A stretch of DNA of 64,000 nucleotides from an uncultured cyanobacterium (lineage in GTDB: Bacteria > Cyanobacteriota > Cyanobacteriia > Cyanobacteriales > Nostocaceae), in the NCBI GenBank assembly GCA_963706595.1, contig OY970166.1, positions 1,952,001 through 2,016,000 of the forward strand, written 5' to 3'. The notes below the pieces were generated by a model that was given only the letters and a program-made list of their open reading frames with translations, did not search any database and was not told the origin of the DNA. Positions 12,132-33,164 of this stretch are shown here, in pieces. The first letter of the stretch is position 1; each line of letters starts with the position of its first letter. The position numbers and the translations under genes were made by a program.

Positions 12132-15100
12132 TTAATTTCTAGTGCCAATTCCATTCAAATATATAATGACTGGACTATTGAAAGCATCACTACTAATACT
12201 GAGTTTTGCATCACGTTTCCCTTCACCTTGAGCATAGAAACTCACATCAATTTGATATTGATCACCTGGAGCTACTACAGTTTGAGTAATGCGGCCAGTA
12301 GGACTAAATTCGTTAGTATGGTTAGGGCTAAAGTCGTTAGTATGGTTGCCTTCTATCTGAATATTAGTGATACTTAAAGGTGCTGAACCTGTGTTAGTAA
12401 CTATAATAGTTTGTGGTGGGCTACTTTGATCTCCTATTTCTTGTTGTCCAAAGGTCAAGGAAGTACGACTTAGGCTGATATTTGGTCCAGGAGGGTTGGT
12501 GGCATTTCCAGTTAATTGAACTTGTTTGGGACTACCCGCAGCGTTATGGGCAATTTCTAGAATGGCTTGGCGATCGCCTTCATTTCTGGGTTGAAATTTG
12601 ATAGTAATTTGACAATTCTTTTCTGGTTCAACAGATGAATTATTAGCACAACTATTTTTAACAAATTTAAACTCTTGACTATCAATATTAGTGCTAGTTA
12701 TCTTCAAAGATGCTGAACCTGTGTTAGTAACTGTAATAGTTTGTGATTGGCTACTTTGATCTCCTATTTCTTGTTTTCTAAAGGTTAAGGAAGGACGACT
12801 TAGGCTGATATTTGGTCTAGGAGGGTTGGTGGCATTTCCAGTTAATTGCACTTGTTTGGGACTACCCGCAGCATTATGGGAAATTTCTAGAATGGCTTGG
12901 CGATCGCCTTCATTTCTGGGTTGAAATTTGACAGTAATTTGACAATTCTTTTCTGGTTCAACAGAGTAATTATTAGCACAATTATTCTTGATAATTTCAA
13001 ATTCTTGACTGTTAATTTTAGTGCTAGTTATCTTCAAAGATGCTGAACCTGTGTTAGTAACTGTAATAGTTTGTGGTTGGCTACTTTGATCTCCTATTTC
13101 TTGTTTTCCAAAGGTTAAGGAAGCACGATTTAGGCTGATATTTGGTACAGGACGCTTGGTGGCATTTCCAGTTAATTGGACTTGTTTGGGATTACCCGCA
13201 GCATTATGGGCAATTGCTAGAATGGCTTGGTGATCGCCTTCATTTCTGGGTTGGAATTTGATAGTAATTTGACAATTCTTTTCTGGTTCAACAGATGAAT
13301 TATTAGCACAATCATTCTTGATAATTTCAAATTCTTGACTGTCAATTTTACTACTAATTATCTTCAAAGATGCTGAACCTGCATTATCAATAGTAATTTC
13401 TGCTGTATTGCTATCTCCAAGAAAGATGTCACCAAAGTCCAATATCTGAGATTCAATCACCAAAATAGGTACAGGTATTTCACTTCCACTTCCAGTAAGT
13501 TGGACAAGCTGGGGAGTATCACTAGCATCGTGGTAAATTGTCAGTTCAGCATTGTACTGACCAGGAGTTTTGGGAGTGAAATCAATACTGATTTGGCAAA
13601 TATCTTGAGGATTGATCACATCTCCCGTAGCACAACCTCCAGATATAGTTTTAAAATTATCCTTTCTCTCACCACTAATCACAATAGCGAGAATTTTTAG
13701 GGGTTTTAAGCCTTGATTGCTAAAGGTCAAAGTTTTTGCTGGACTAGTTTGATTAATCTCTAAGGTGTTGAAATCTAGATTTTCTGGAGCAAGTACAACC
13801 CTAGCCTGATAGTTAGATAAAACAGATTTAATTCCCCATCCAATTAAGAACAGTCCAAAAATAGCAACAATTACCTTTAACCACAGAGGAAATCGGAGAA
13901 TGAGTAAATGAGACTCTGGCAGATGTTCGGGAATATTTGCGGATGGTTTTTCGCTAATATCAGGTACTTGATTGAGGATGTTGAGATTATGACGAGTGGC
14001 TTCAGCACCAATTTTGTCACCTAAAGATTCCCGAATCCGAAGTGCTTCATTTAAGAATTTTTGAGTTGAACTTTGATTTCCCAAACAAAGTTCACGAGTC
14101 CCCAGTTGATGCCATACCCAACTTTCGGTAACTTGGTCTCCAATGCTTTGCACCGCTTGCAGAGTTTGTTCCAATACCTGCCGCCATGCGTCCCACTGCC
14201 CATTCAGGTACTAGAGAACTTTCTGCGGCTCTGGCAAGAGTAGTCATCTCTGCATGATGACCATGCGCTGCTGCCCATTGCAATAGTTCCAAAAGTACAT
14301 CTGATTCTTGCAATAAGTTTTCAGGCAATGATTGATACTGTTGTACCCAGTTGCTAGAATAATTTAATATTTGCTCCATGCAAGCAGTTAAATTCCATTC
14401 CTGCTTCACAAACTCAATCACGTTGTTGGCGATGCGATAACAATCACCTTCCAACTCTACTAAATGAAATTTTTGCAAGCTATTTAAAAGTGGTTCAATC
14501 TTCAGTGCTTCTGTCTGGGCAGATGTATGCGATATTTGACTTATTTGTTGAGCAGCAAGCGTTGTTAAGGAAATTAGAATCGCTAAAATTGATAAAATCC
14601 AACGTTGAGATTTGGTGAGCGAACCCAATATATGCTTCCGCAAAAATTCCTCACGAGAAGATGATTTTACTAATTGTAATACTTCTGCTAAGGATAGGTT
14701 TTTTTCCTTGGCGATCGCTACTGTTTGAAGAATATCAAGAGGATGATTTTCCAAGGCAACACAGAGTAACTTAGCAGTAGATAATTCCTCCGGTGTTAAA
14801 GTTCTTCTTAACTCCTGTTCTACTAAACGTAAAGCATCCCTCTCCGGTAAACCTGGTAAAGCTTCAGCATATCCCTCTCCCCAAATATGTCGCTCATGAG
14901 ATGCCAGTATAAATGTGCCATTGGGGACGACGGTATTAATTACTCTATCCAAGTCATCTTGTTGCCACTGCACATCATCTAAAAGTAGCAGAAATTTTTT
15001 ATTATCTAACTTAAATTTAATCTCATCGTCAGTAGGTTTATAGGGAATATCACTGCTATAAAAGGCATTAAATAAAAATTGCAGCCAGTCAGAAATAGAC

Positions 15101-19917: not shown

Positions 19918-20101
19918 TTTGACATCCCTTGAAGGCGTAAAATTCCCATTCTAAGGCTTCTTCTTTCTAAGACTCGACTTACTCTCAGGAGTTTCCGTTC
20001 TCCGTTCCAGTCTCTGTACTAATGTCAGAAATTCATCTGAGTGTGTTAATTTCCTGTATAATTAACAACTGTTTATGACCGATTACTAAAAAAATCCCAT
20101 C

Positions 20102-20488
20102 ATGTCACCCGAATCTATTGAAACAATTGTATCCGCTTATTTTGCTAACATTGCAGCCATGAATCCAGAAGGCTGGGTGGAGAATTTTGCTGAAGATGCT
20201 ATTAGTCATGACCCGGTTGGTGAACCACCGGCGAAAGTACATGAGGGATATCGCGAGTTTATGGGACAGTTACAAGCATTCTTCGATAAATTAGAACCAA
20301 AAACTGAGCATATCTTCGTTGGTGGTAATGAGGCGGCGGTAAAGTGGACAATGGAAGGTGTGAGTAAAAGAGGTAAATCAGTTATCTTTGAAGGAATTAC
20401 GATTTTTGAAATTAACGCCGCAGGTAAAATTCAAACAACTCGCGCTTATTGGAATCCGGCAAATATGGTGGCGCAACTGCGGTCTTAA
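20102..20488 (+). CDS. SnoaL/NTF2-like (ketosteroid isomerase-like) protein
   Basis: FAEDAISHDPVG, FEGITIFE, TRAYWN. Confidence 0.85.
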   Translation: MSPESIETIVSAYFANIAAMNPEGWVENFAEDAISHDPVGEPPAKVHEGYREFMGQLQAFFDKLEPKTEHIFVGGNEAAVKWTMEGVSKRGKSVIFEGITIFEINAAGKIQTTRAYWNPANMVAQLRS

Positions 20489-21136
20489 ATTTCCAGGAGT
20501 GTAAAATTTTAAAATTATCCCACAATTCAGGAAGAGGATGTAACTACTTGGGAAAAGCGGTGCTTCAGTTATTTTTATGGAAAACTTTGGACAATAAATA
20601 TTTTATAGCCATTATCCAGTGCTGTTTCCACTCCAGACACTACTCAGTATCATTCTGACAATTGTTTTTATTGTCGAACTTTACCAATTTCAAAATTTAT
20701 GAGGCTGGTCTTTGCTGTGGGCAACAATTCAAGGGTCAACGCAGAAAAGGACAAAATAAGGGGCAACCTTTTTCCTTTCTAATTCTCAATGAAGGTAGAG
20801 GAATGGACTTTACCATAAACTTTTAGAAACCCTGGCGGTTGACACTCAGCAATTAACAAATTTTGTGTATTTTGCCCTCTCCAGATATCCCAATCAGAAT
20901 TCTAAATAGCACTCCATTCAGGGATACAATAACACTAGATATAGAAATCATATTTGATTTATGAAAAATTTTAAGTATTGTAGTGGCGTGGCAAGGCTAA
21001 AATGTTGCAATAGATTTTAGCCTTGTCACGCTACTACGTGTCTGTTCAAAAATCAAATAGTAGTCCTATATTTAATCCCGAAATCTGCAATTTATTTTGC
21101 ACCACTACTTATGAAAAAACAAAAGTGAAAACTAAA

Positions 21137-22306
21137 ATGCGGATACTAATGATTACGCCTAACTCAATTGCTGCAAAACGTCCTTTAGAGTGGTGTCTGA
21201 TCAACGGAGATGAAGTTTTGTGTGTCGGAGAAGAGGACTTCTATCAAAACAACCCTCCTCAAAACTATAGTTTTATCCCTGCTATTTCTAGTGGCATAGA
21301 TATCTTGCTAAATTCACCTGAATCAACCACAGAAAAGATAGCGGATTTGCGTAAATTACAAATAGAGCAACTGCAAAAATTAGTCAAAGAATTTCAACCT
21401 GATGTCATTCATGGGCATTACTTTTCGTTCACTGTAGAATGTTGTGCCTTAGCAAATTTGCACCCTTTAGTCGTATCAGTTTGGGGATTTTTGAATGATT
21501 TAATGTCGTCTGAAGCAGAGCGTCTCTTTAAATTTTATCCAGAGATACGTCCAATCATAGAATCGTCTGACGCTTTAATTGTTGAGACTCCTATTTTACT
21601 TGATAAATGTCAACCGTTCTTGAAATCTAACCAGCGATTAGAGTTAATACCTTTAGGTACAAACACACAACACTTCTCTCCTTATGATGGAGAGAATGTA
21701 GATTGAGCCAGAAAAATCTTAAATATTCCCCAAGAAGCTAAAGTTTTGTTATCGCCAAGAGGTTGGGATGAATCTTATCGGCATCAAGAGATTCTAGAAG
21801 CATTTGCTCTAGCTTATTCAGAATTACCACACCCAACAATACTTTTATTTATAGCTTTAGGGCGTGGCACAAGTGAAGAAGCTAAACTTTATCATCAAGG
21901 TATATTTCAGGTAATAGATAAACTAAAAATAAAGGATCATGTTAAAATCTTGCCTCCTATGTCTTATGAAATGATGCCTTATGTCTATGCTTTGGCAGAT
22001 GTAGTCATTAACTATCCTATTAATGACGCTTTTCCGTCTACGATAATAGAAGCAGTTGCCTGTGAACGACCTGTAATTACTGCTCAATTGCCAGGTTACA
22101 AAGGTACGTTCATTGAGGAATTCTGTACTTTAGTTGATGCCAATAATATGACTGAGTTAGCTAAGGCTATGGCTGAAGTCGTCAATACACCCAGAACTAA
22201 TTACAGCAGTCAAATTGCTAAAGCCCGTCAGGTAATAGTTGAACAATACGATGAGAGTATATTTAAAAATCGTCTGTTTAATCTTTATAAAAATCTGATG
22301 ATATGA
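21137..22306 (+). pseudogene. GT4 (GT-B) glycosyltransferase interrupted by an in-frame TGA at 21704-21706
   Basis: MRILMI start, FQPDVIHGH, DAFPSTIIEAVACERPVI; the two ORF-track pieces are in the same frame separated only by one stop codon. Confidence 0.75.
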
Positions 22307-22420
22307 TACTTTTTTAATACTGAATCTAGTACCTAGTGAGGCGTAAAATTCAGATAAGATCATGCTCTTGTCATCAGGAATTGAGATAAATGAAAGTTAA
22401 TTCTAGAGAAGCCATCACAA

Positions 22421-23671
22421 ATGCTTAAAAATATGGCTTGGTTCGAGCGAATTCGCCAACTATTTGAGTTCAGAAATTTTCGTCTTTTTTTCATAGGAGA
22501 TGCAATTTCTCTACTTGGTAGTTATATCCAGGGAATAGCCAACGTCTGGCTAGTTTATGATCTAACTAATTCGGCATTTTTGTTAGCTTTAGTCCAATTT
22601 TCAGGACTAATTTCTAATTTAACTTTCGCTCCTTTTGGCGGTATTATGGCAGATCAGATCAATCGCCATCGCATTATTCTAGTTACTGAAACTCTTTGTA
22701 TCTTGCCACCTTTAGCTCTAGCAGCTTTAACATTAACTGATACCATTCAAATTTGGCATATTATTATTTTGGATATTTTTAAAGGCATCATTAATGCCTT
22801 TTATGTGCCAGCACGTCACTCATTGTTTACAGAAATGGTAGAGAAAAAAGAATATTTAGGTAATGCGATCGCTTTCAATTCTTCAATATACAATGCTACT
22901 AGATTTATTGGTCCGGCTATTGGTGGTTTGTTAGTTGCTGCCTTTGGTGTGGGAATCTGTTTTTTAATTGACGCTCTTAGCTTTATACCGATGATCATTG
23001 CTCTTTCAGCTATGAATATTAAACCCAGCACAATAAATGTTAGTCATACTAGTTACTGGGAGAAATTAAAAGAAGGGTTTGTTTATGCTTCTAGCTTCCC
23101 ACCCAGTCGCGCAATTTTAACTCTACTAGGTCTTTCCAGTTTTATGGGAATGTCTTATGCGATTTTAGTACCTGTGTTTGCTGAAGAGATTCTTCACGGT
23201 GACGCTAAAACTCTAGGCTTTTTAATGTCAAGTTCGGGAATAGGAGCATTAATCGCCGCAATTTATCTAAGTTCAAGACATAGTATCATAGGATTAGAAA
23301 ACATAATTGCTTTTGCCCCAGTTATTTTTGGTAGTGGACTAATTGCTTTTTCATTTTTTCAAAGTTTTTGGTTGTCTTCCTTGATGTTGCTATTAATTGG
23401 ATTTGGTTTAGTTATGCAAGTAACATCTAGCAATACAGTTTTACAAATCTTAGTAGATGATGACAAACGAGGACGTTTAATGAGCTTTTTTAGTATGGTA
23501 GTTACGGTGATGGCATCACTAGGAGGTTTATTTGTTGGCGGCTTGGCTACCCATATCGGTGTCTCCATGACTTTAAGAATTTGCGGATTTTTCTGTGTTT
23601 TAGGTTCGTTTTTATTTTATCAAAAAACTCCGATGTTAAGACATTTTATTGAACAAACTCACAAAGCTTAA
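22421..23671 (+). CDS. MFS transporter (macrolide-efflux/MFS_3-like exporter)
   Basis: About 12 hydrophobic segments, RNFRLFF, GGIMADQINR, DDKRGRLMS. Confidence 0.9.
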   Translation: MLKNMAWFERIRQLFEFRNFRLFFIGDAISLLGSYIQGIANVWLVYDLTNSAFLLALVQFSGLISNLTFAPFGGIMADQINRHRIILVTETLCILPPLALAALTLTDTIQIWHIIILDIFKGIINAFYVPARHSLFTEMVEKKEYLGNAIAFNSSIYNATRFIGPAIGGLLVAAFGVGICFLIDALSFIPMIIALSAMNIKPSTINVSHTSYWEKLKEGFVYASSFPPSRAILTLLGLSSFMGMSYAILVPVFAEEILHGDAKTLGFLMSSSGIGALIAAIYLSSRHSIIGLENIIAFAPVIFGSGLIAFSFFQSFWLSSLMLLLIGFGLVMQVTSSNTVLQILVDDDKRGRLMSFFSMVVTVMASLGGLFVGGLATHIGVSMTLRICGFFCVLGSFLFYQKTPMLRHFIEQTHKA

Positions 23672-23771
23672 AAAACTGTTTGATCAAAATTATTTATTGA
23701 CTATAGGAATAATATTTGATTTTTCAAATATACGTACGATGGGCATTACCAACTAAAATCTGGATATTGTG

Positions 23772-23882
23772 GGCAATGCTGAAACCAAGTATGAATTTAG
23801 GTGTAGAGACGTTGCATGGAACGTCTCTGCAAGGGTTTCGATATCATCAAAAATCATTTTCATACATCAAATCAGCAACGCC
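23772..23882. mobile_element. MITE-like element (GGCGTTGC family) with internal GTAG palindrome
   Basis: ggcaatgctga...tcagcaacgcc; internal gtagagacgtt...aacgtctctgc; similar to 16287-16397. Confidence 0.6.
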
Positions 23883-23922
23883 GATATTTTCAGCGCAAGC
23901 TATCAGCAACGCCATAATTTAC

Positions 23923-24492
23923 TTATTCTTCAAACTGGTAATTTCCTAATTTTATATCTTCAGCAAAATACTCAGATACAAAATCTTTAGTTTCTTGATT
24001 GTAATAAAGAGCGTAATTTTTTTCTCTGGTATTGGGAATAAAGTGAGGAAGAACGGGGGCTGCAATCCCAATTTGTTCGCAAATCAACTTAAAATCATTG
24101 TTTAAGTTTTCAAATCTAGCAATAAACTTAACTTTTTTATTTTTCCCATAGACATAATCTACTTGTCGTTGCCGATGATAGAATGCTGAAGGTGAAATGA
24201 AATTAGGAAAATTTAAACAAAACTCCGCAAATGATATGTTCAGTTTAGGCAATCCTTCATATTTACCATCATTCCAATAGTGATATAAACTGACCATCCT
24301 ATCCCAAGGGTTTCTGATAAAACAAAAAGAAAAGAAACTATCCCAAGTTTCTTGATCGTATTCATCGGGTAAAAAATGGCCTTTATACGTTCCCCATTTT
24401 TCTTTAAGTTCGGGAAATAAAGTAACGGTAACAGCAGAACCGGCAGTTTTTGGAATATGAATGAAAATGAACTTTCTTTCTGTGTCAATCAT
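23923..24492 (-). CDS. Sulfotransferase family 2 protein
   Basis: FIHIPKTAGS (5'-PSB) and RNPWDRMVS (3'-PB) PAPS-binding motifs. Confidence 0.88.
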   Translation of the reverse strand: MIDTERKFIFIHIPKTAGSAVTVTLFPELKEKWGTYKGHFLPDEYDQETWDSFFSFCFIRNPWDRMVSLYHYWNDGKYEGLPKLNISFAEFCLNFPNFISPSAFYHRQRQVDYVYGKNKKVKFIARFENLNNDFKLICEQIGIAAPVLPHFIPNTREKNYALYYNQETKDFVSEYFAEDIKLGNYQFEE

Positions 24493-24571
24493 AGTTTTAG
24501 TAATTGCAGCTAAACAAAATAAAAGAAATTACAAAAAAGCAAAAATAATCAATGTGCTTCAGTCCAGGCAA

Positions 24572-25489
24572 TTATTTTTCCAACTGACGGCACATCTTTT
24601 CCCACCGTTTTTCGATTAGCTGTGAAAATATCGGCTCAGGGTAAGTCAAATTCTTTTGATTGATCATTTGAATTTTTTCTAGCCAATTTTTAGACTGGTT
24701 GAGAAAGTCTGGCGTGACTTTTTGTGCTGTTGAAATATTTCCTATAGAAAAATGTAAATCAAGTTCTTTTTGAGTCGGGTTGATACCAAAAGCTTTTAGT
24801 TGGTCTTCCAGAATCTTGATTGTCGTTAGTTTTTGTTCTTGCTCATGCTTACTGCTCATTTGATTTGGGTGTTGATGATAAAGATAATGTACTTCAGGAA
24901 TGTTAGCAAATTTCACATATTTTGCAGAACGCACCCAGAATTCATAGTCTTCTGCATACTCATAGGCAGGATCGTACCATAGCTGTGTTTCGGTGAAGGC
25001 AGAACGACGGATAATGGTAGTACCATGTGGAATTGTTCCTCTATTGGAGAAGAACAAATTACATCGAATAGTTTCATCATCTGTAGGATACTGACAAACG
25101 AAATCCGCACCCAAACCAGTGATTTCTAGCCAAGTACCACATACCCCCACTTCTGGATGAGTTTCCATAAAATTAACTTGTCTAGTTAAACGATTAGGAA
25201 GACTAATATCATCTCCATCAGAATGGACAATATACTCTCCTGTAGCCAAGGGTAATACTTTATTTAAACTATAAACTTTTTTCAAATTCTGCTCGTTTCG
25301 GAGTAACTTTATTCGGGAATCTTGCTTTGCATAAAATTCGAGAATAGACCAGGTATTATCTGTAGAACCATCATCAATGATCATCAACTCAAAGTCTTTA
25401 AATGTTTGGTCTAAGAAGCTCCTTATGGTTTTTTCTATAAAAATTCCTACATTATAAACAGAGATGACTACGCTAATTTTCGGAGACAT
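24572..25489 (-). CDS. GT2 (GT-A) glycosyltransferase
   Basis: ISVVISVYN, IIDDGSTD, DGDD, AEDYEFW. Confidence 0.92.
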   Translation of the reverse strand: MSPKISVVISVYNVGIFIEKTIRSFLDQTFKDFELMIIDDGSTDNTWSILEFYAKQDSRIKLLRNEQNLKKVYSLNKVLPLATGEYIVHSDGDDISLPNRLTRQVNFMETHPEVGVCGTWLEITGLGADFVCQYPTDDETIRCNLFFSNRGTIPHGTTIIRRSAFTETQLWYDPAYEYAEDYEFWVRSAKYVKFANIPEVHYLYHQHPNQMSSKHEQEQKLTTIKILEDQLKAFGINPTQKELDLHFSIGNISTAQKVTPDFLNQSKNWLEKIQMINQKNLTYPEPIFSQLIEKRWEKMCRQLEK

Positions 25490-25552
25490 TGTTAATTTTT
25501 AAATTAATTACTTGATGAAGTTTTTTGACTGACAGACAAATTTTCAATTATT

Positions 25553-25577
25553 AACCCCGCAATTTTCATGCGGGGCT
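25553..25577 (-). terminator. GC-rich hairpin between the peptide gene and GT2 (possible attenuator or processing stem)
   Basis: ccccgca-N7-tgcgggg inverted repeat. Confidence 0.4.
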
Positions 25578-25635
25578 ACTAGATGACTACACTGGTATTT
25601 AATTTAGTCAATCAGGAGTCAACTAACTAATCAAA

Positions 25636-25866
25636 CTATGCTACTGATAGAGCTATTGGATGAGCAGTACGTGCTGCAGTTCTACTCCAAGCAGTACGTG
25701 ATGCAATTCTACTCCAAGCAGTACGTGATGCAATTCCACGTAGAGCAGTACGTGATGCAATTCCACATAGAGCAGTACGTGATGCTGTAGCCGAAATGGA
25801 TATTTCTTCTAAGTTCAACTCAGTTAACTGATTCAGAAAATCTTCAAAAGAAGGTTGGTAGCTCAT
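25636..25866 (-). CDS. Putative RiPP precursor: acidic leader plus five 9-aa Ser/Thr/Arg-rich repeats
   Basis: GAGGA RBS; leader ...LTELNLEEI; repeats (T/I)A(S/A)RTAxxx; co-directional with GT2 and sulfotransferase. Confidence 0.65.
   Translation of the reverse strand: MSYQPSFEDFLNQLTELNLEEISISATASRTALCGIASRTALRGIASRTAWSRIASRTAWSRTAARTAHPIALSVA
25664..25790. repeat. 27-bp tandem repeat, five units
   Basis: gcagtacgtg starts at 25664, 25691, 25718, 25745 and 25772. Confidence 0.9.
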
Positions 25867-26032
25867 GACGCAATTATCCTCAAAAAATTAATTGATGGCT
25901 TTGAAATCAGTATTATCATACAGCACTTTGCTGACAAGTTAAAAGTTAAACAAATACCAATACTATAGCCAAATTACGAGGGTTCAACGGCTGTAGAAGC
26001 ATTCAACCTATCCCACTAATAGGCGTTGCAGA

Positions 26033-26245
26033 ATGGACAACCGAGACCAGTATGATTACGGTTGGAACTCAAAAGGACAGCGCTTCCATGCACTTAAATC
26101 AGGTCGTCGTGAAGGTCGGGTGAACATAATTGCCGCGCTGTGTAACCATAAGCTGATAGCTCCTTTCACTGTTGAGGGTGCGTGTAATCGAATAGTATTT
26201 GAGACTTGGCTTGAAGCTTGTTTACTTCCCACACTCAAACCGGGA
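26033..26245 (+). mobile_element. IS630-family transposase fragment
   Basis: YGW..KGQRFHALKSGRR.GRVNIIAAL...APF...GACN..VFETWL...LLP.LKPG; both ends missing. Confidence 0.8.
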
Positions 26246-26365
26246 CATTTTCGAGATCAGCTTCGACGTTTAAGTGGGCAGTAGAGTTAACAAAGCCTGA
26301 TTATAAACTGGAAATGAGAGGTGAACCCATCCATAATAAAGGGAGATGTTATTTTTAATTTAGTT

Positions 26366-27145
26366 ATGTACTTAACTTGGTTAGACAGCAATAGTTGGCT
26401 ACTAGAAATCGGCAACCAAAGGATATTGCTTGACCCGTGGCTGGTGGGTTCCTTAACTTTTGGCAATTTGGATTGGTTTTTTAGAGGTTCCCGGACACAA
26501 GAACGCCCCATACCAGAGAATATTGATTTACTTTTGCTGTCTCAAGGTTTGGAAGATCATGCTCATCCGGAAACTCTGAAGCAGCTTGACCACAAAATTC
26601 AAGTTGTGGGTTCGCCCAATGCGGCAAAATTATTACAGGGTTTGGGTTATACTTCCGTAACATCCCTAGCTCATGGTGAGAGTTTTAACTTGAATGAGCA
26701 AGTAGAAATTACTGCTGTTCCTGGGTCTACCGTGGGTTATAACCTAGTAGAAAATGGTTATTTGCTCAAAGAAGTCAGCACTGGTTTAACACTTTACTAT
26801 GAGCCTCATGGGTCGCATTCGCCAGAAGTGAAAAAGTTTGCACCAGTTGATGTGGTAATTACGCCAATTGTTGATGTTACACTACCTTTAGGTTTGCCAA
26901 TTATTAAAGGTAGGAAGAGTGCATTAGAAGTTGCACAGTGGTTACAACCCCAAATTATGCTTCCCACGGCTGCGGGTGGAGACGTAATCTTTGAAGGTTT
27001 GCTGACAAAATTTTTAACAGCGCAAGGAAGCGGAGAAGAGTTTAGTTCCTTACTAAATCAGCACAATTTAACTACAAGAGTGATGGAACCCAAGCCAGGC
27101 GATCGCCTAGAACTACAATTACAAAAGCGCACATTAAAAGTATAA
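26366..27145 (+). CDS. MBL-fold metallo-hydrolase (conserved cyanobacterial family)
   Basis: MYLTWLDSNSW, ILLDPWLVG, SQGLEDHAH, YYEPHG. Confidence 0.85.
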   Translation: MYLTWLDSNSWLLEIGNQRILLDPWLVGSLTFGNLDWFFRGSRTQERPIPENIDLLLLSQGLEDHAHPETLKQLDHKIQVVGSPNAAKLLQGLGYTSVTSLAHGESFNLNEQVEITAVPGSTVGYNLVENGYLLKEVSTGLTLYYEPHGSHSPEVKKFAPVDVVITPIVDVTLPLGLPIIKGRKSALEVAQWLQPQIMLPTAAGGDVIFEGLLTKFLTAQGSGEEFSSLLNQHNLTTRVMEPKPGDRLELQLQKRTLKV

Positions 27146-28468: not shown

Positions 28469-31400
28469 TTACTCCAAAATTGCACTCTTATTCAGCGCTA
28501 TCAATTGCTTAAAAGCCTCATTATTTAACTCCGTCAACCAAGACTCATCACTACCAACCACAGAAGAAGAAAGTTTTTTCTTATCCTCAATCATTTGGTC
28601 AATTCTCTCCTCCAAAGTCCCAATAGTCACAAACTTATGCACAAACACATTCTTTTTTTGACCAATGCGAAAAGCCCTGTCAGTGGCTTGATCCTCAACG
28701 GCTGGATTCCACCAACGGTCAAAATGGAAAACATGATTGGCTTTCGTCAGAGTAATACCCACACCACCAGCTTTCAGCGAAAGGATAAACACAGATGGTT
28801 CCGTATCCGGGTCTTGAAATTCAGTAATCATCTGTTCTCGACGTTTGCGACTCGTGCCACCATGTAGGTAGTAAGTATTGCAGTGCAGACTATGTTTAAG
28901 ATGCTTTTCCACACTTTCGCAAACATCTGTAAACTGGCTAAATATCAGCAAACTTTCACCTTCAGCAACCGCTTCATCTACCATTTCTGCTAATCGGCTC
29001 AGTTTGTGCGATCGCTCAGTGGAAAATGCACTATTATCTTGTAAGAACTGGGCAGGATGATTACAAATTTGTTTTAATTTCAGCAGAGTTGAAAGGATCA
29101 ATCCTTTGCGTTGAATACCTTCTGTTTTTTGCAGCTTTTCTTCAACATCTTTCACCACCACTTCATATAGTGATGCCTGTTCTTTAGTTAAATTAGTATA
29201 GAGTTTTTGTTCAACTTTATCTGGCAAATCATTAATAATCGATTGGTCAGTTTTTACCCGGCGTAAAATTAGCGGTTCCACCAATTTCTTCAAGGTAACT
29301 GATTTCACCCGGTCATTATCTTTCTGAATGGGAATTTCAAAAGACTTGCGAAACTGGGCTTCTTTACCCAAATAACCAGGATTGAGAAAATTAAAAATTG
29401 ACCATAAATCCAGCAGTCTGTTTTCTACAGGCGTTCCTGTTAACGCGAGTCGGTGTTTTGCCGAAATTTTGAGGATAGCTTTGGTTTGTGCAGCTTTGGG
29501 ATTTTTGATATTTTGCGCCTCATCTAAAACCAGACGTTGCCATTCCACACTATTGAACAGCTTTTCATCCTTCCGGGCTAGAGTGAAGGAAGTAATAATC
29601 ACATCATGCTGTTGACAAGCGGCTTTAAAATCAGGAGAATTTTGTAGGCGATCGCTACCATGATGCACCATACTTTTTAAATGGGGTGCAAACTTAGCAA
29701 TTTCCTTTTGCCAATTACCCACAACGGAAGTAGGCGCAATTAATAAAGTAGGTAAAACAGACTCCACTGCATCCTTTTCCTGCACAAGTCTAGCAATTAC
29801 TTGTACCGACTTACCCAAACCCATATCATCTGCTAAACAGCCATTTAAACCCAAACGTTCTAGATATTCCAACCAAGCCACACCCCGCTTTTGGTACTCG
29901 CGTAAAGTGCCTTGCAGATTTAACGTTTCAGAAATTGGTTCCAATTGGCTTTTATCTTGCAACTTCGCTATCATCTCCGATAGCACTTCATCATGTTCAA
30001 TTTCCCACTCTTCCCCAACTTCGGCACTGCGTTGTAAAAACTCCAACAAATTCATTTGGGGTTGTTCATCACCGTGAGACTCCCAAAATTCCAATAATTG
30101 CTGCATTTTATCCCGGTCTAATTCCATCCACTGACCGCGAAAATGCACGAGAGGAGATTTAGCATTAATTAATTGTTCCCATTCTTGGGGAGTCACAACT
30201 TGTTCCCCAATGGCTAATTCATATTGATACTCTACCAGGGAATCTAAACCAAAATAGCTTTTTGTTTCCCCTTTAGTTGGCGCGAGTTTCTTACCAGATG
30301 CTTTCAGGCGAACTTTGGCACGACGGCGACCAGCAGGAGTATACCAAGCAGGTACAATGACTTTAAAACCTGCATCTTCTAACAACCAAGCACTTTCTTT
30401 GAGAAAATCAAACGCCGCATCTAAAGTCAGTTGCATTCCTGTCGGCTGGTCTGTTTCTAACCCTTGCCAAAGTTGAGGATACATTCGCGCTGCGTAACCC
30501 AAATTTAACAGCAAATTAGTTTCAAAGTTTTTACCAAAATTCTTCTGTACAGAAGTTTTAGCTGTTTGATTCATGTTCCAGTAATCAGCTAAATCCAACT
30601 TTAAAGAAGGGTCTTGTTTACTGGCTACCAAAAATTGCATCTGCCAATTTTCTATTTCTTCGCTAGTAGGAGAATGCAGTTGAAAGCAGAGATAAAAAGG
30701 TGAATCTGATTGAGTGCGGGTAATTTTATTTTTCCACCCTTGCCATTGTTTATATTCTTCTAAAGCAGCATGACTTGTGAGTGGGTTATGGCGTTGGGGA
30801 TAAAGACAATAATCAATTAGAGAGTCTGAGATTTGCTTATCAAAAGCTGCTGTCGAAGGTGTATGTAGTAACTAAATCATTTAGTACAGATTCAGAAAAA
30901 TGCCGTAATAAAGTTTCCTGATTAAAGAACTCAATACTATCACTTGATTTTGCCGCACCTGCCACACAAATTAGTGGCATATAGTCAATATATTTTTGGA
31001 TATTACTTTCGTATTGTTCGGAAACAATTTCCCAGTTGGCATAAATTTCAAAAGGCTGAGAAGTTGGTTGTTTGCCTTTTTTCTTAGTTGTTGCGGCTGC
31101 TAACTGCCGATATTTCAGCGCTGGAATATATTGGTCTTTGATAATTACTTCTTTAAAAGCTTGAGTGTAGTGATACCAAAACAGCAAATCAGAACCAAGT
31201 TGAATATCCCCAGAATTATATAGTGCTAAAAAATGAATATCATTGATTAATTTAATGAAATTTATCGCTTTTTCAGCCTTAGCATAGATTGCTGTTTCAT
31301 AACAATCAACTTGCCAATATTGAAACTCCTCATAATCTTCAGGAATTTCCACTTCCAGATACTTAACTAATTCCGGCGAAGGTAAAGGCTGATTATTCGT

Positions 31401-31795: not shown

Positions 31796-33164
31796 TCACC
31801 CCACCCAAGCCAGACACAAATTCCGAAAATCATCACCCCTGGCTTCAAAATTAGGATACTGGTCAAAACTCGCACAAGCCGGAGACAACAAAACCACAGA
31901 CGCGTGATATTCTTTCGCTAATTCTGCTGACCGAGAAACAGCCTTCGCCATCGTTTCCACAATTTCGTAATTAGTATAACCCACCGCTTGCAGACGTTGA
32001 GCAAATGCTGGTGCTGCATTACCAATTAATAAAACCGCCGCCGCTTTAGCTTGAATTTTAGTTAACCAGCCAGTATCATCACCGGGTTTAGCTTCACCAC
32101 CAGCAATCAAAATTGCGGGACTATTCACAGAGACTAACCCAACTTCAGCCGCATCATAATTAGTGGCTTTGCTATCGTTAATAAAATCAATCCCTTCCCA
32201 AGTGCAAATATGTTCTAAACGATGGGGAACACCAGAAAATTTGCGAATTGCAGTATCAATAGCATCAGGCGCAATTTCTGCTAACCGCGCCGCAGCAACA
32301 GCCATTAAGAGATTTTGCAGGTTATGTTCTCCTACCATTCGCAAAGCCGAGGCTGAGATGACTCTTTCTGGTTTCAGAGGTTGGTTTTAACTTTTCTACA
32401 ACCCAACCATCTTCAATATAAAAGCCTTGTTCACTAACTAAAAAATCTTCACCTTTAACACTTGTCCAATAAGCATCCGGCCAATGACTGATACCCATCT
32501 TATTTAAATAGGAGTCATCACCATTCAATACTTGAAAATTGGACTGAAGTAATAACTTAGCTTTGATATTGTAGTAATTTTCTAAAGTCTTATGACGGGC
32601 GAGATGGTCTGGTGTAAAAGTCGTCCAAATGCCGATGCGGGGGGCGAGAGTAACTGAAGATTCGACTTGATAACTGCTAATTTCTGCTATTACCCAATCT
32701 GGCAGTTTTTCAGATAGCGCAACTTCACAGGCAGCATAACCAATATTACCACAGGCAGGGGCATTTAATCCGGCGGCTTGAAATATTGCGGCAATTAAAG
32801 CGGTAGTCGTGGTTTTACCATTCGTGCCAGTAATACCCACCCAAGGGGAAGCTTGTAAATATCGCCAAGCGAGTTCCATTTCGCCGATAGTTTCAATGCC
32901 TAATTCTCGCGCCTTGACTAACACGGGAATATCCCAAGGTACGCCAGGACTAACAACAATTAAATCAGATAAATCAGTGCCATTTAAATCAAGAGAATGC
33001 CCCAATTTTACAGTGATTTGCTCGGTAGCGAGTTCTTGTTGTTGTTTCAGGAGGCTAGAGGAGGTGTTACTATCACTTAGCACTACCTCCCAACCTTCCC
33101 GTTTCAACAATCTCGCCGTAGCAACACCGGACTTTCCTAATCCAATTACTGAAGCTCTAGGCAT
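31796..33164 (-). CDS. murD: UDP-N-acetylmuramoyl-L-alanine--D-glutamate ligase; +1 frameshift at about 32372-32374
   Basis: [40 protein letters not shown]; removing one base gives about 455 aa. Confidence 0.93.

Follow-up and report, generated by a model that had tools for sequence, protein, structure and literature searches.

The stretch of DNA analysed here, referred to as the window, comprises 64,000 nucleotides (G000:C1:1952001-2016000) of the single-contig, 5.57-Mb genome of an uncultured cyanobacterium of the Nostocaceae. It carries a gene cluster which, judged from its sequence and that of its relatives, was likely acquired horizontally and would direct the synthesis of a linear, O-glycosylated ribosomal peptide with sulfated glycans. 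The cluster can be considered a likely member of an undescribed family of clusters for peptides made by ribosomes and modified post-translationally (RiPPs), centred on a dedicated subfamily of family 4 glycosyltransferases (GT4). Support is strong for the predicted pairing of the GT4 with the peptide and moderate for the sulfated glycans, and the copy in the window is possibly dead. The initial annotation had described a run of precursor, hairpin, family 2 glycosyltransferase (GT2) and sulfotransferase, convergent with the GT4 and an exporter, and annotation of the open reading frames (ORFs) confirmed this layout. The features of the cluster are the following:

25636..25866, minus strand: precursor of 76 aa, an acidic leader followed by a 48-aa region of 9-aa repeats
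25877..25881, minus strand: ribosome-binding site GAGGA, 10 nt 5' of the precursor ATG
25552..25578 (about), minus strand: hairpin with a 10-bp GC-rich stem and no U tail, between precursor and GT2
24572..25489, minus strand: GT2, 305 aa, intact, PF00535; proposed glycan extender
23923..24492, minus strand: 3'-phosphoadenosine-5'-phosphosulfate (PAPS) sulfotransferase, Sulfotransfer_2, 189 aa, intact, PF03567 at 38.4 bits (cut-off 22); proposed glycan cap
22421..23671, plus strand: major facilitator superfamily (MFS) transporter, MFS_3/EntS-like, 416 aa, PF05977; proposed exporter
21137..22306, plus strand: GT4 of the peptide-associated subfamily, 389 codons, interrupted; proposed leader-dependent priming enzyme

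The evidence that carries this reading comes from the GT4. In a phylogeny inferred with IQ-TREE from 32 sequences picked out of 114, the enzyme groups with the GT4s of three other genomes, G527, G654 and G704, and with proteins lacking genomic context (support 100/99); FastTree, applied to all 114, recovers the same clade with a support of 1.0. Each of the three GT4s adjoins a peptide of 80–81 aa that starts with PS(F/Y)EDF(L/I) and continues into an acidic helix, and no RiPP recognition element (RRE) was found in the DNA examined at these loci (16 of 28 kb at G527 and the whole 9-kb contigs of the other two). Six-frame reading of the 5.57-Mb genome finds the PS(F/Y)EDF motif once, within the precursor itself, and a looser pattern likewise once; among the loci then gathered the motif was present elsewhere only at G527, G654 and G704. 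A profile of the leader matched six of the 389 genomes of the family, namely the four source genomes and, weakly, G464 and G458. The match in G458 was rejected, being an ATP-grasp precursor that fits the double-glycine half only. A double-glycine site is retained in the sister peptides, and the G527 peptide passes the cut-off of TIGR01847; the window peptide has, from the comparison, apparently lost this site. The idea that the common leader is a truncated YxxPxL motif of lasso type, dependent on an RRE since lost, was dropped, an RRE-less sister clade giving the better fit. The precursor peptide is very probably the substrate of the GT4, as far as these comparisons go.

The precursor frame is the sole one of six that is open across all 231 nt, and it is preceded by the clear ribosome-binding site noted initially. 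The acidic leader and the five repeats, units of 27 nt or 9 aa, are likewise as first described. The leader (approximately residues 1–28) contains the PSFEDF motif and five Asp/Glu residues, with no Lys/Arg and no Gly-Gly, the last acidic residue lying at or before position 21. The core (residues 29–76) consists of the repeats and has six Thr, seven Ser, eight Arg and one Cys, with no Tyr and no Asp/Glu. The likening of the leader's acidic motif to those of cyanobactin, Nif11 and double-glycine leaders needs correction, there being no match to a Pfam or NCBIfam leader model and no Gly-Gly site, and the description of the peptide as multi-core is unproven, with neither a cleavage motif nor a protease that would separate the repeats. 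That the ORF would act like a RiPP precursor is supported by the motif common to the peptides that accompany orthologous GT4s and by the combination of a constant leader with variable repeats. A small precursor, a constant leader, a variable core and dedicated enzymes next to it, by which RiPPs in general are recognized, are all found here.

The variability of the core is seen in close relatives. Four sequencing runs (X1–X4) were aligned to positions 20000–27000 of the window. In X1 and X2 the GT4, MFS, sulfotransferase, GT2 and the start of the precursor occur together at approximately 95% identity, the coverage being in several contig pieces, none of which reaches from end to end; from X3 and X4 came only short scattered pieces. 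The X1 precursor has three differences over 25785–25890 (codons 1–27), its aligned piece ending at codon 27, while the five indels of the X2 precursor all fall at codon 29 or beyond, sum to −6 nt and keep the frame. The two precursors, taken from two fragmentary contigs, are read as a pattern of conserved leader and variable core. In the GT4, 33 differences are common to X1 and X2, 16 of them synonymous and 17 not; these were taken from 40 of 334 rows, leaving out five specific to X1 and two upstream.

The 151-nt spacer between precursor and GT2 folds with a z score of −4.9, none of 200 shuffled sequences being equally low, and a terminator scan did not list the hairpin within it. The hairpin is probably a transcript-stabilizing or step-down element. 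In X1 and X2 its stem is kept and its loop is inverted between the arms (loose ends 25564/25566).

Outside the RRE-less clade, the GT4 belongs to a subfamily of 102 proteins (E ≤ 1e-40; 8000 candidates scored), present in 29 of the 389 genomes of the family and in none of the 10 congeneric genomes; no member was found in the plasmids or viral contigs searched. A profile scan of GTDB contigs yielded at least 63 loci, 24 with subfamily members of 33–48% identity and 39 with distant GT4s. An RRE lies within 3 kb at all 25 subfamily loci (the 24 listed and a paralogue), in contrast to none of the 39 distant GT4 loci listed; the RRE profile was built from six subfamily RREs, and one control locus had no match to the GT4 profile. 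Similarly, a co-directional ORF of 35–100 aa with a (Y/W)xxPx(L/V/I/F) motif of lasso type occurs within 2.5 kb at 22 of the 24 subfamily loci, against 2 of the 39 others listed. The peptides at the subfamily loci end in Thr/Ser-rich tails. The link of peptide to GT2 that had been proposed is not borne out, the association running through the GT4 instead.

The paralogue mentioned above is encoded in the same genome and is 45% identical to the window GT4. Its cluster, L116 (G000:C1:3281951-3289938), comprises an RRE, the GT4, a 40-aa peptide, an HPr-type kinase, a GT2, a B2 peptidase, an ATP-binding cassette (ABC) transporter and a nucleoside triphosphate (NTP) transferase. Its core has no Asp/Glu at positions 7–9, and the genome is without a lasso cyclase, a weak partial match of 58 positions to PF00733 being all that was found. 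Clusters of this type probably make linear phospho- or glycopeptides. The same cyclase-free, lasso-like type was observed in 13 Nostoc-type loci among the GT4 loci listed, and members of the family to which the genome belongs carry such Nostoc-type clusters; the NCBIfam model lasso_cyano matches the Nostoc-type peptide weakly, at 25.8 bits (cut-off 33). An array of approximately ten related small precursors, with kinase-like genes next to it, lies at a distance of 5 kb from the L116 cluster (G000:C1:3294779-3302551). A second RRE cluster of this genome, L243:7176-15514 (G000, approximately 2.201–2.209 Mb), contains an extended PqqD, two NTP transferases, an HPr-kinase-like protein and three GT2s; no precursor was identified in it.

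Three further subfamily loci, L114:6119-11173, L129:12410-12610 and L131:5850-11230, encode precursors in which a 9-aa TPQTT repeat occurs three or four times, in clusters of a type that contains only RRE, GT4, GT34 and GT92-like genes. A precursor profile gave 10 matches, of which six new ones were examined, three long proteins being left out; P0122, P0123 and P0129 are again 9-aa Thr-repeat precursors, and P0126, P0128 and P0130 carry nearly the same repeat as the TPQTT loci behind signal-peptide-like starts. In Chloroflexi, L137:2808-12613, L139 and L141 encode one or two subfamily GT4s, an RRE and a peptide with a WxxP leader that ends in Ser/Thr, and they adjoin a surface-type protein with a C25 (gingipain-family) peptidase; at L137 a sulfotransferase gene lies approximately 3 kb upstream of the GT4. 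Decayed fragments of a subfamily RRE and GT4 were noted at L231:8043-8902 (G503), so that GT4/RRE clusters are lost in other genomes too.

Several of the related clusters combine the peptide with further sugar-related enzymes. Those of G654 and G704 add a GT2, an epimerase, LicD, an NTP transferase-aminotransferase fusion and a methyltransferase. The G464 precursor is a true homologue of the G527 peptide (45% over 38 aa), and at its locus (L246:612-6590) this double-glycine precursor is followed by a tetratricopeptide repeat (TPR)-GT41 protein (OGT-like), a sulfotransferase and a GT2-sulfotransferase fusion, the GT2 part of which shares 56% identity with the GT2 in the G654 cluster; no subfamily GT4 was found in the G464 genome. 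From its gene content, the locus is a candidate O-GlcNAc-primed sulfated peptide cluster. It is suggestive only, because cyanobacteria commonly carry TPR/GT41 and sulfotransferase genes.

In the window, the fold of the GT2 is nearest to SpsA, chondroitin polymerase and WrtF, and of its homologues one is 72% identical, the others among the 120 listed reaching 45% at most. The enzyme was rejected as an anchor for comparison, with no close orthologue in 388 genomes of the family (best 36–39%). Three loci of GT2 homologues that were inspected have sugar-pathway or unrelated surroundings, and 80 metagenome loci with GT2 homologues (557 kb) contained no match to the leader or the RRE. In X1 and X2 the MFS gene accompanies the cluster, and APS kinase, for PAPS, is encoded in the genome. 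Glycosylation and sulfation of the repeats had been proposed together: the pairing of the two activities stands, as it recurs in related clusters, but the sulfate is expected on the sugar and not on the peptide, because of the family to which the sulfotransferase belongs (PF03567, a carbohydrate-sulfotransferase family) and because the core is free of Tyr. The GT2 and the sulfotransferase probably act on the same glycopeptide as the GT4, considering the order of the genes, their co-inheritance in X1 and X2 and the similar logic, with other enzymes, of the related clusters.

The pathway would then proceed as follows. The precursor would be made in excess from a precursor-GT2-sulfotransferase transcript, while the hairpin would lower the output of the enzyme genes. 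The GT4, needing no separate RRE, would recognize the PS(F/Y)EDF leader and place the first sugar onto a Thr (or Ser) of each repeat, the GT2 would attach a second sugar, and the sulfotransferase would sulfate the glycan using PAPS. A protease encoded elsewhere would remove the leader by cutting close to residue 28, and it may also cleave at the Arg-rich repeats, and the MFS transporter would export the product.

A number of points weigh against this reading. The comparison covers gene associations only, and we infer every chemical step from them. The leader motif was defined after the four peptides had been seen, and two of their loci, G654 and G704, are near-copies. Kinship inflates the counts given for the subfamily, 13 of the 24 loci being one Nostoc-type cluster and four of Stigonema type, so that approximately six lineages are represented, and six of these same loci were the source of the RRE profile. 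The window GT2 shares 28–31% identity with the GT2s from the other peptide clusters, themselves 56–74% identical to each other, and its nearest relatives resemble ordinary glycan GT2s. The two cyanobacterial homologues of the sulfotransferase (in 2 of 220 genomes, 35–37% identity) have no such peptide within 1.5 kb. MFS proteins are small-molecule carriers, and a 48-aa glycopeptide is a large cargo. The cluster encodes no protease, and the leader is without the Gly-Gly that the G527 peptide has. GT4 and precursor stand at opposite ends of the cluster and on opposite strands. Finally, the GT4 gene is interrupted, as discussed below.

The alternative that survives best, though we regard it as unlikely, is a locus of two parts, in which the GT4 and the precursor give a mono-glycosylated peptide and the GT2 and sulfotransferase are passengers acting on an exopolysaccharide or on a small molecule exported by the MFS transporter. 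The generic glycan lineages of the two enzymes, unlike those of other peptide clusters, and the EntS-like character of the transporter speak for such a division; however, both genes lie directly downstream of the precursor on the same strand and are co-inherited with it in X1 and X2, a GT2 and a sulfotransferase recur behind the homologous precursor in G464, and no polymerase, flippase or chain-length gene was annotated among the ORFs near the cluster. Less probable still is that the product remains uncut as a mucin-like mini-glycoprotein belonging to the sheath or to a biofilm matrix, similar to EbfG of Synechococcus, matrix proteins of the double-glycine type. The patchy distribution of the GT4 (in the 29 of 389 and 0 of 10 genomes given above) and the hypervariable cores favour a secondary metabolite or signal instead, and this alternative is about function, being compatible with the chemistry proposed.

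It is very unlikely that the acceptor is something other than a Thr/Ser hydroxyl, with the GT4 modifying Arg or, as the initial annotation allowed, the sulfotransferase sulfating Ser/Thr directly. The eight Arg and 13 Ser/Thr of the core are indeed regularly spaced, but the cores accompanied by orthologous GT4s have Thr in common and not Arg (Pro-Thr-Leu units in G527, Thr-Thr in L114, L129, L131 and the Nostoc type), PF03567 is a family of carbohydrate sulfotransferases, and one sulfotransferase of G464 is fused to a GT2. That the ORF is a non-coding minisatellite, open by chance beside an unrelated glycan cassette, is barely credible and largely refuted: the precursor is without a database homologue (of 2842 candidates scored out of 5.8 billion proteins, only itself), has low recognition and no usable match in the ESM Atlas and matches no Pfam or NCBIfam family, but it has a ribosome-binding site, a leader motif found in orthologous clusters and frame-keeping indels confined to the repeats.

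The GT4 gene reads as broken in this assembly. Unmentioned in the initial annotation, an in-frame TGA stands at codon 190 (21704–21706). The codon is CGA (Arg) in both X1 and X2 and encodes Lys in the sister clade, and a reading of the stop as replacing Trp was therefore rejected; the Trp guess touches one column of search profile A2. If the TGA is real, this copy would be a recent pseudogene, the cluster being intact at that codon in its close relatives. No sequencing run contained half of the sequence words searched. Frameshift-like junctions were also observed in the window in murD (32322–32344), an SNF2 helicase gene (30640–30840) and a STAND-type gene (14092–14174); the splitting of an essential gene suggests uncorrected indel errors in the assembly. 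Whether the pathway is active in this strain is somewhat doubtful. The model of an intact subfamily member (predicted local distance difference test score, pLDDT, of 93.5) has a GT-B fold, nearest to MshA/BshA at 15–18% identity, and the subfamily has no characterized close relative.

The surroundings of the cluster contain the following features:

20836..20931, plus strand: left edge of the stretch common to X1/X2, from the alignment to the runs
20932..21113, no strand: insertion resembling a miniature inverted-repeat transposable element (MITE), directly 5' of the GT4 start and not present in X1/X2
23692..23890, no strand: repeat element(s) in the gap where the MFS and sulfotransferase genes converge, with many copies here and in related genomes
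26033..26284, plus strand: IS630 transposase fragment at the right edge

Both boundaries proposed earlier were thus found, the MITE-like element having 102 matches across the genome. X2 skips 23681–23923, the repeat region between MFS and sulfotransferase. Contigs of X1 and X2 extend 1.6–1.9 kb further upstream, and because this DNA is missing from the window, a gene may have been lost at its left edge. The GC content of the enzyme genes is 32–36%, that of the precursor 42% and that of the genome 41.3%. As the initial annotation stated, no protease, YcaO, radical SAM or ATP-grasp gene is present among the annotated cluster ORFs; an RRE gene is likewise absent from the annotated ORFs of the window, and the five C39 matches in the genome all lie outside the cluster. 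A DNA search of 60 relatives gave MFS homologues and repeat elements only.

The claim that the architecture is undescribed held against the known classes, whose defining features were not found, and against the literature. Serine-rich-repeat adhesins are primed on Ser/Thr repeats by a GT4 (GtfA/GtfB) and extended by accessory glycosyltransferases, but there the substrates are surface proteins of giant size. The bacterial RiPP sulfotransferase RaxST acts on RaxX, which is sulfated on Tyr, and residues 29–76 contain no Tyr. Cyanobactins come with proteases of the PatA/PatG type and with recognition sequences on either side of each core; the window cluster has no protease, no spacer between the repeats and no match to a leader model. 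Graspetides depend on an ATP-grasp ligase and on Asp/Glu residues of the core as acceptors, and here there is no ATP-grasp gene in the cluster and no acidic residue after position 21. The window peptide does not pass as a Nif11, NHLP or double-glycine precursor, although its sister from G527 passes TIGR01847. A lasso peptide is not indicated, with no RRE in the window, no B2 or full cyclase and no acidic residue at core positions 7–9.

Glycocins (sublancin, glycocin F, thurandacin) are, according to PMC11912497, the only RiPP class defined by glycosylation, and their enzymes are GT2s. The likeness is that of a ribosomal peptide glycosylated as a linear precursor, and in its workings the window cluster would come closest to a glycocin pathway in which another enzyme does the priming. 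It differs by its GT4 as the peptide-linked enzyme, its repeats, its sulfotransferase and a single Cys with no disulfide pattern. The closer analogy drawn initially fails: no SunS/ThuS-type GT2 appears among the 23 NCBIfam families matched, the 15 PDB sequence matches or the 28 fold matches listed, the transporter is an MFS protein, and neither a Cys-rich core, a double-glycine leader nor a C39 transporter was found in the cluster. The linear polyphosphorylated peptide (LPP) and paeninodin-type lasso clusters described in PMC13381572 are, for the LPPs, from Bacillota, have YxxPxL leaders, a discrete RRE, an HprK kinase and an NTP transferase, and are proposed to yield peptides that are phosphorylated, primarily, and glycosylated. 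The Nostoc-type branch of the GT4 family resembles them in its RRE, B2 peptidase, kinase and NTP transferase, whereas in the window cluster RRE, HprK kinase, NTP transferase, signal peptidase I, B2 and ABC transporter are all absent from the ORFs.

For cacaoidin, a class V lanthipeptide, one GT4 and two GT2s are proposed to build a disaccharide (PMC8068269); that sugar is secondary and on a Tyr of a lanthipeptide, whereas the window cluster has no dehydratase/cyclase and its core no Tyr. Davasins, iteratively O-glycosylated on Ser by IgtG (PMC11912497), are set apart by the description of a mature lasso fold, from Streptomyces, modified at one residue. RRE-glycosyltransferase fusions are given as unassigned clusters in PMC7470986, and the RRE-bearing relatives may be listed in the cluster tables of PMC13381572 or PMC7470986, or in lasso_cyano catalogues. 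No description of the GT4 family, of the leaders or of a glycan-sulfated RiPP was found in the literature searched, most subscription papers being outside that search, and five sequence and accession strings were not found in it.

Taken more widely, the chances are about even that these clusters form a new class of RiPPs in cyanobacteria and Chloroflexi, that of linear mucin-like O-glycopeptides with a priming GT4, at least two leader systems and interchangeable extension and capping enzymes. If so, the leader systems would be the RRE with lasso-type leaders and the RRE-free PS(F/Y)EDF type, extension would be carried out by GT2, GT34 and GT92-like enzymes, and capping by sulfotransferase, LicD or kinase/NTP transferase; the product of the window cluster would be a bacterial ribosomal peptide with several sulfated glycans. 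Glycosylation is rare among RiPPs, and a leader-directed Thr/Ser GT4 would be new as an enzyme that defines a class, and would offer a portable tool for the site-directed glycosylation of very different cores, for which named enzyme-peptide pairs are now available. These observations also suggest that the cyclase-free "lasso" clusters of Nostoc-type cyanobacteria have been misread, and many lasso-looking clusters of cyanobacteria would then be cyclase-free members of this class.

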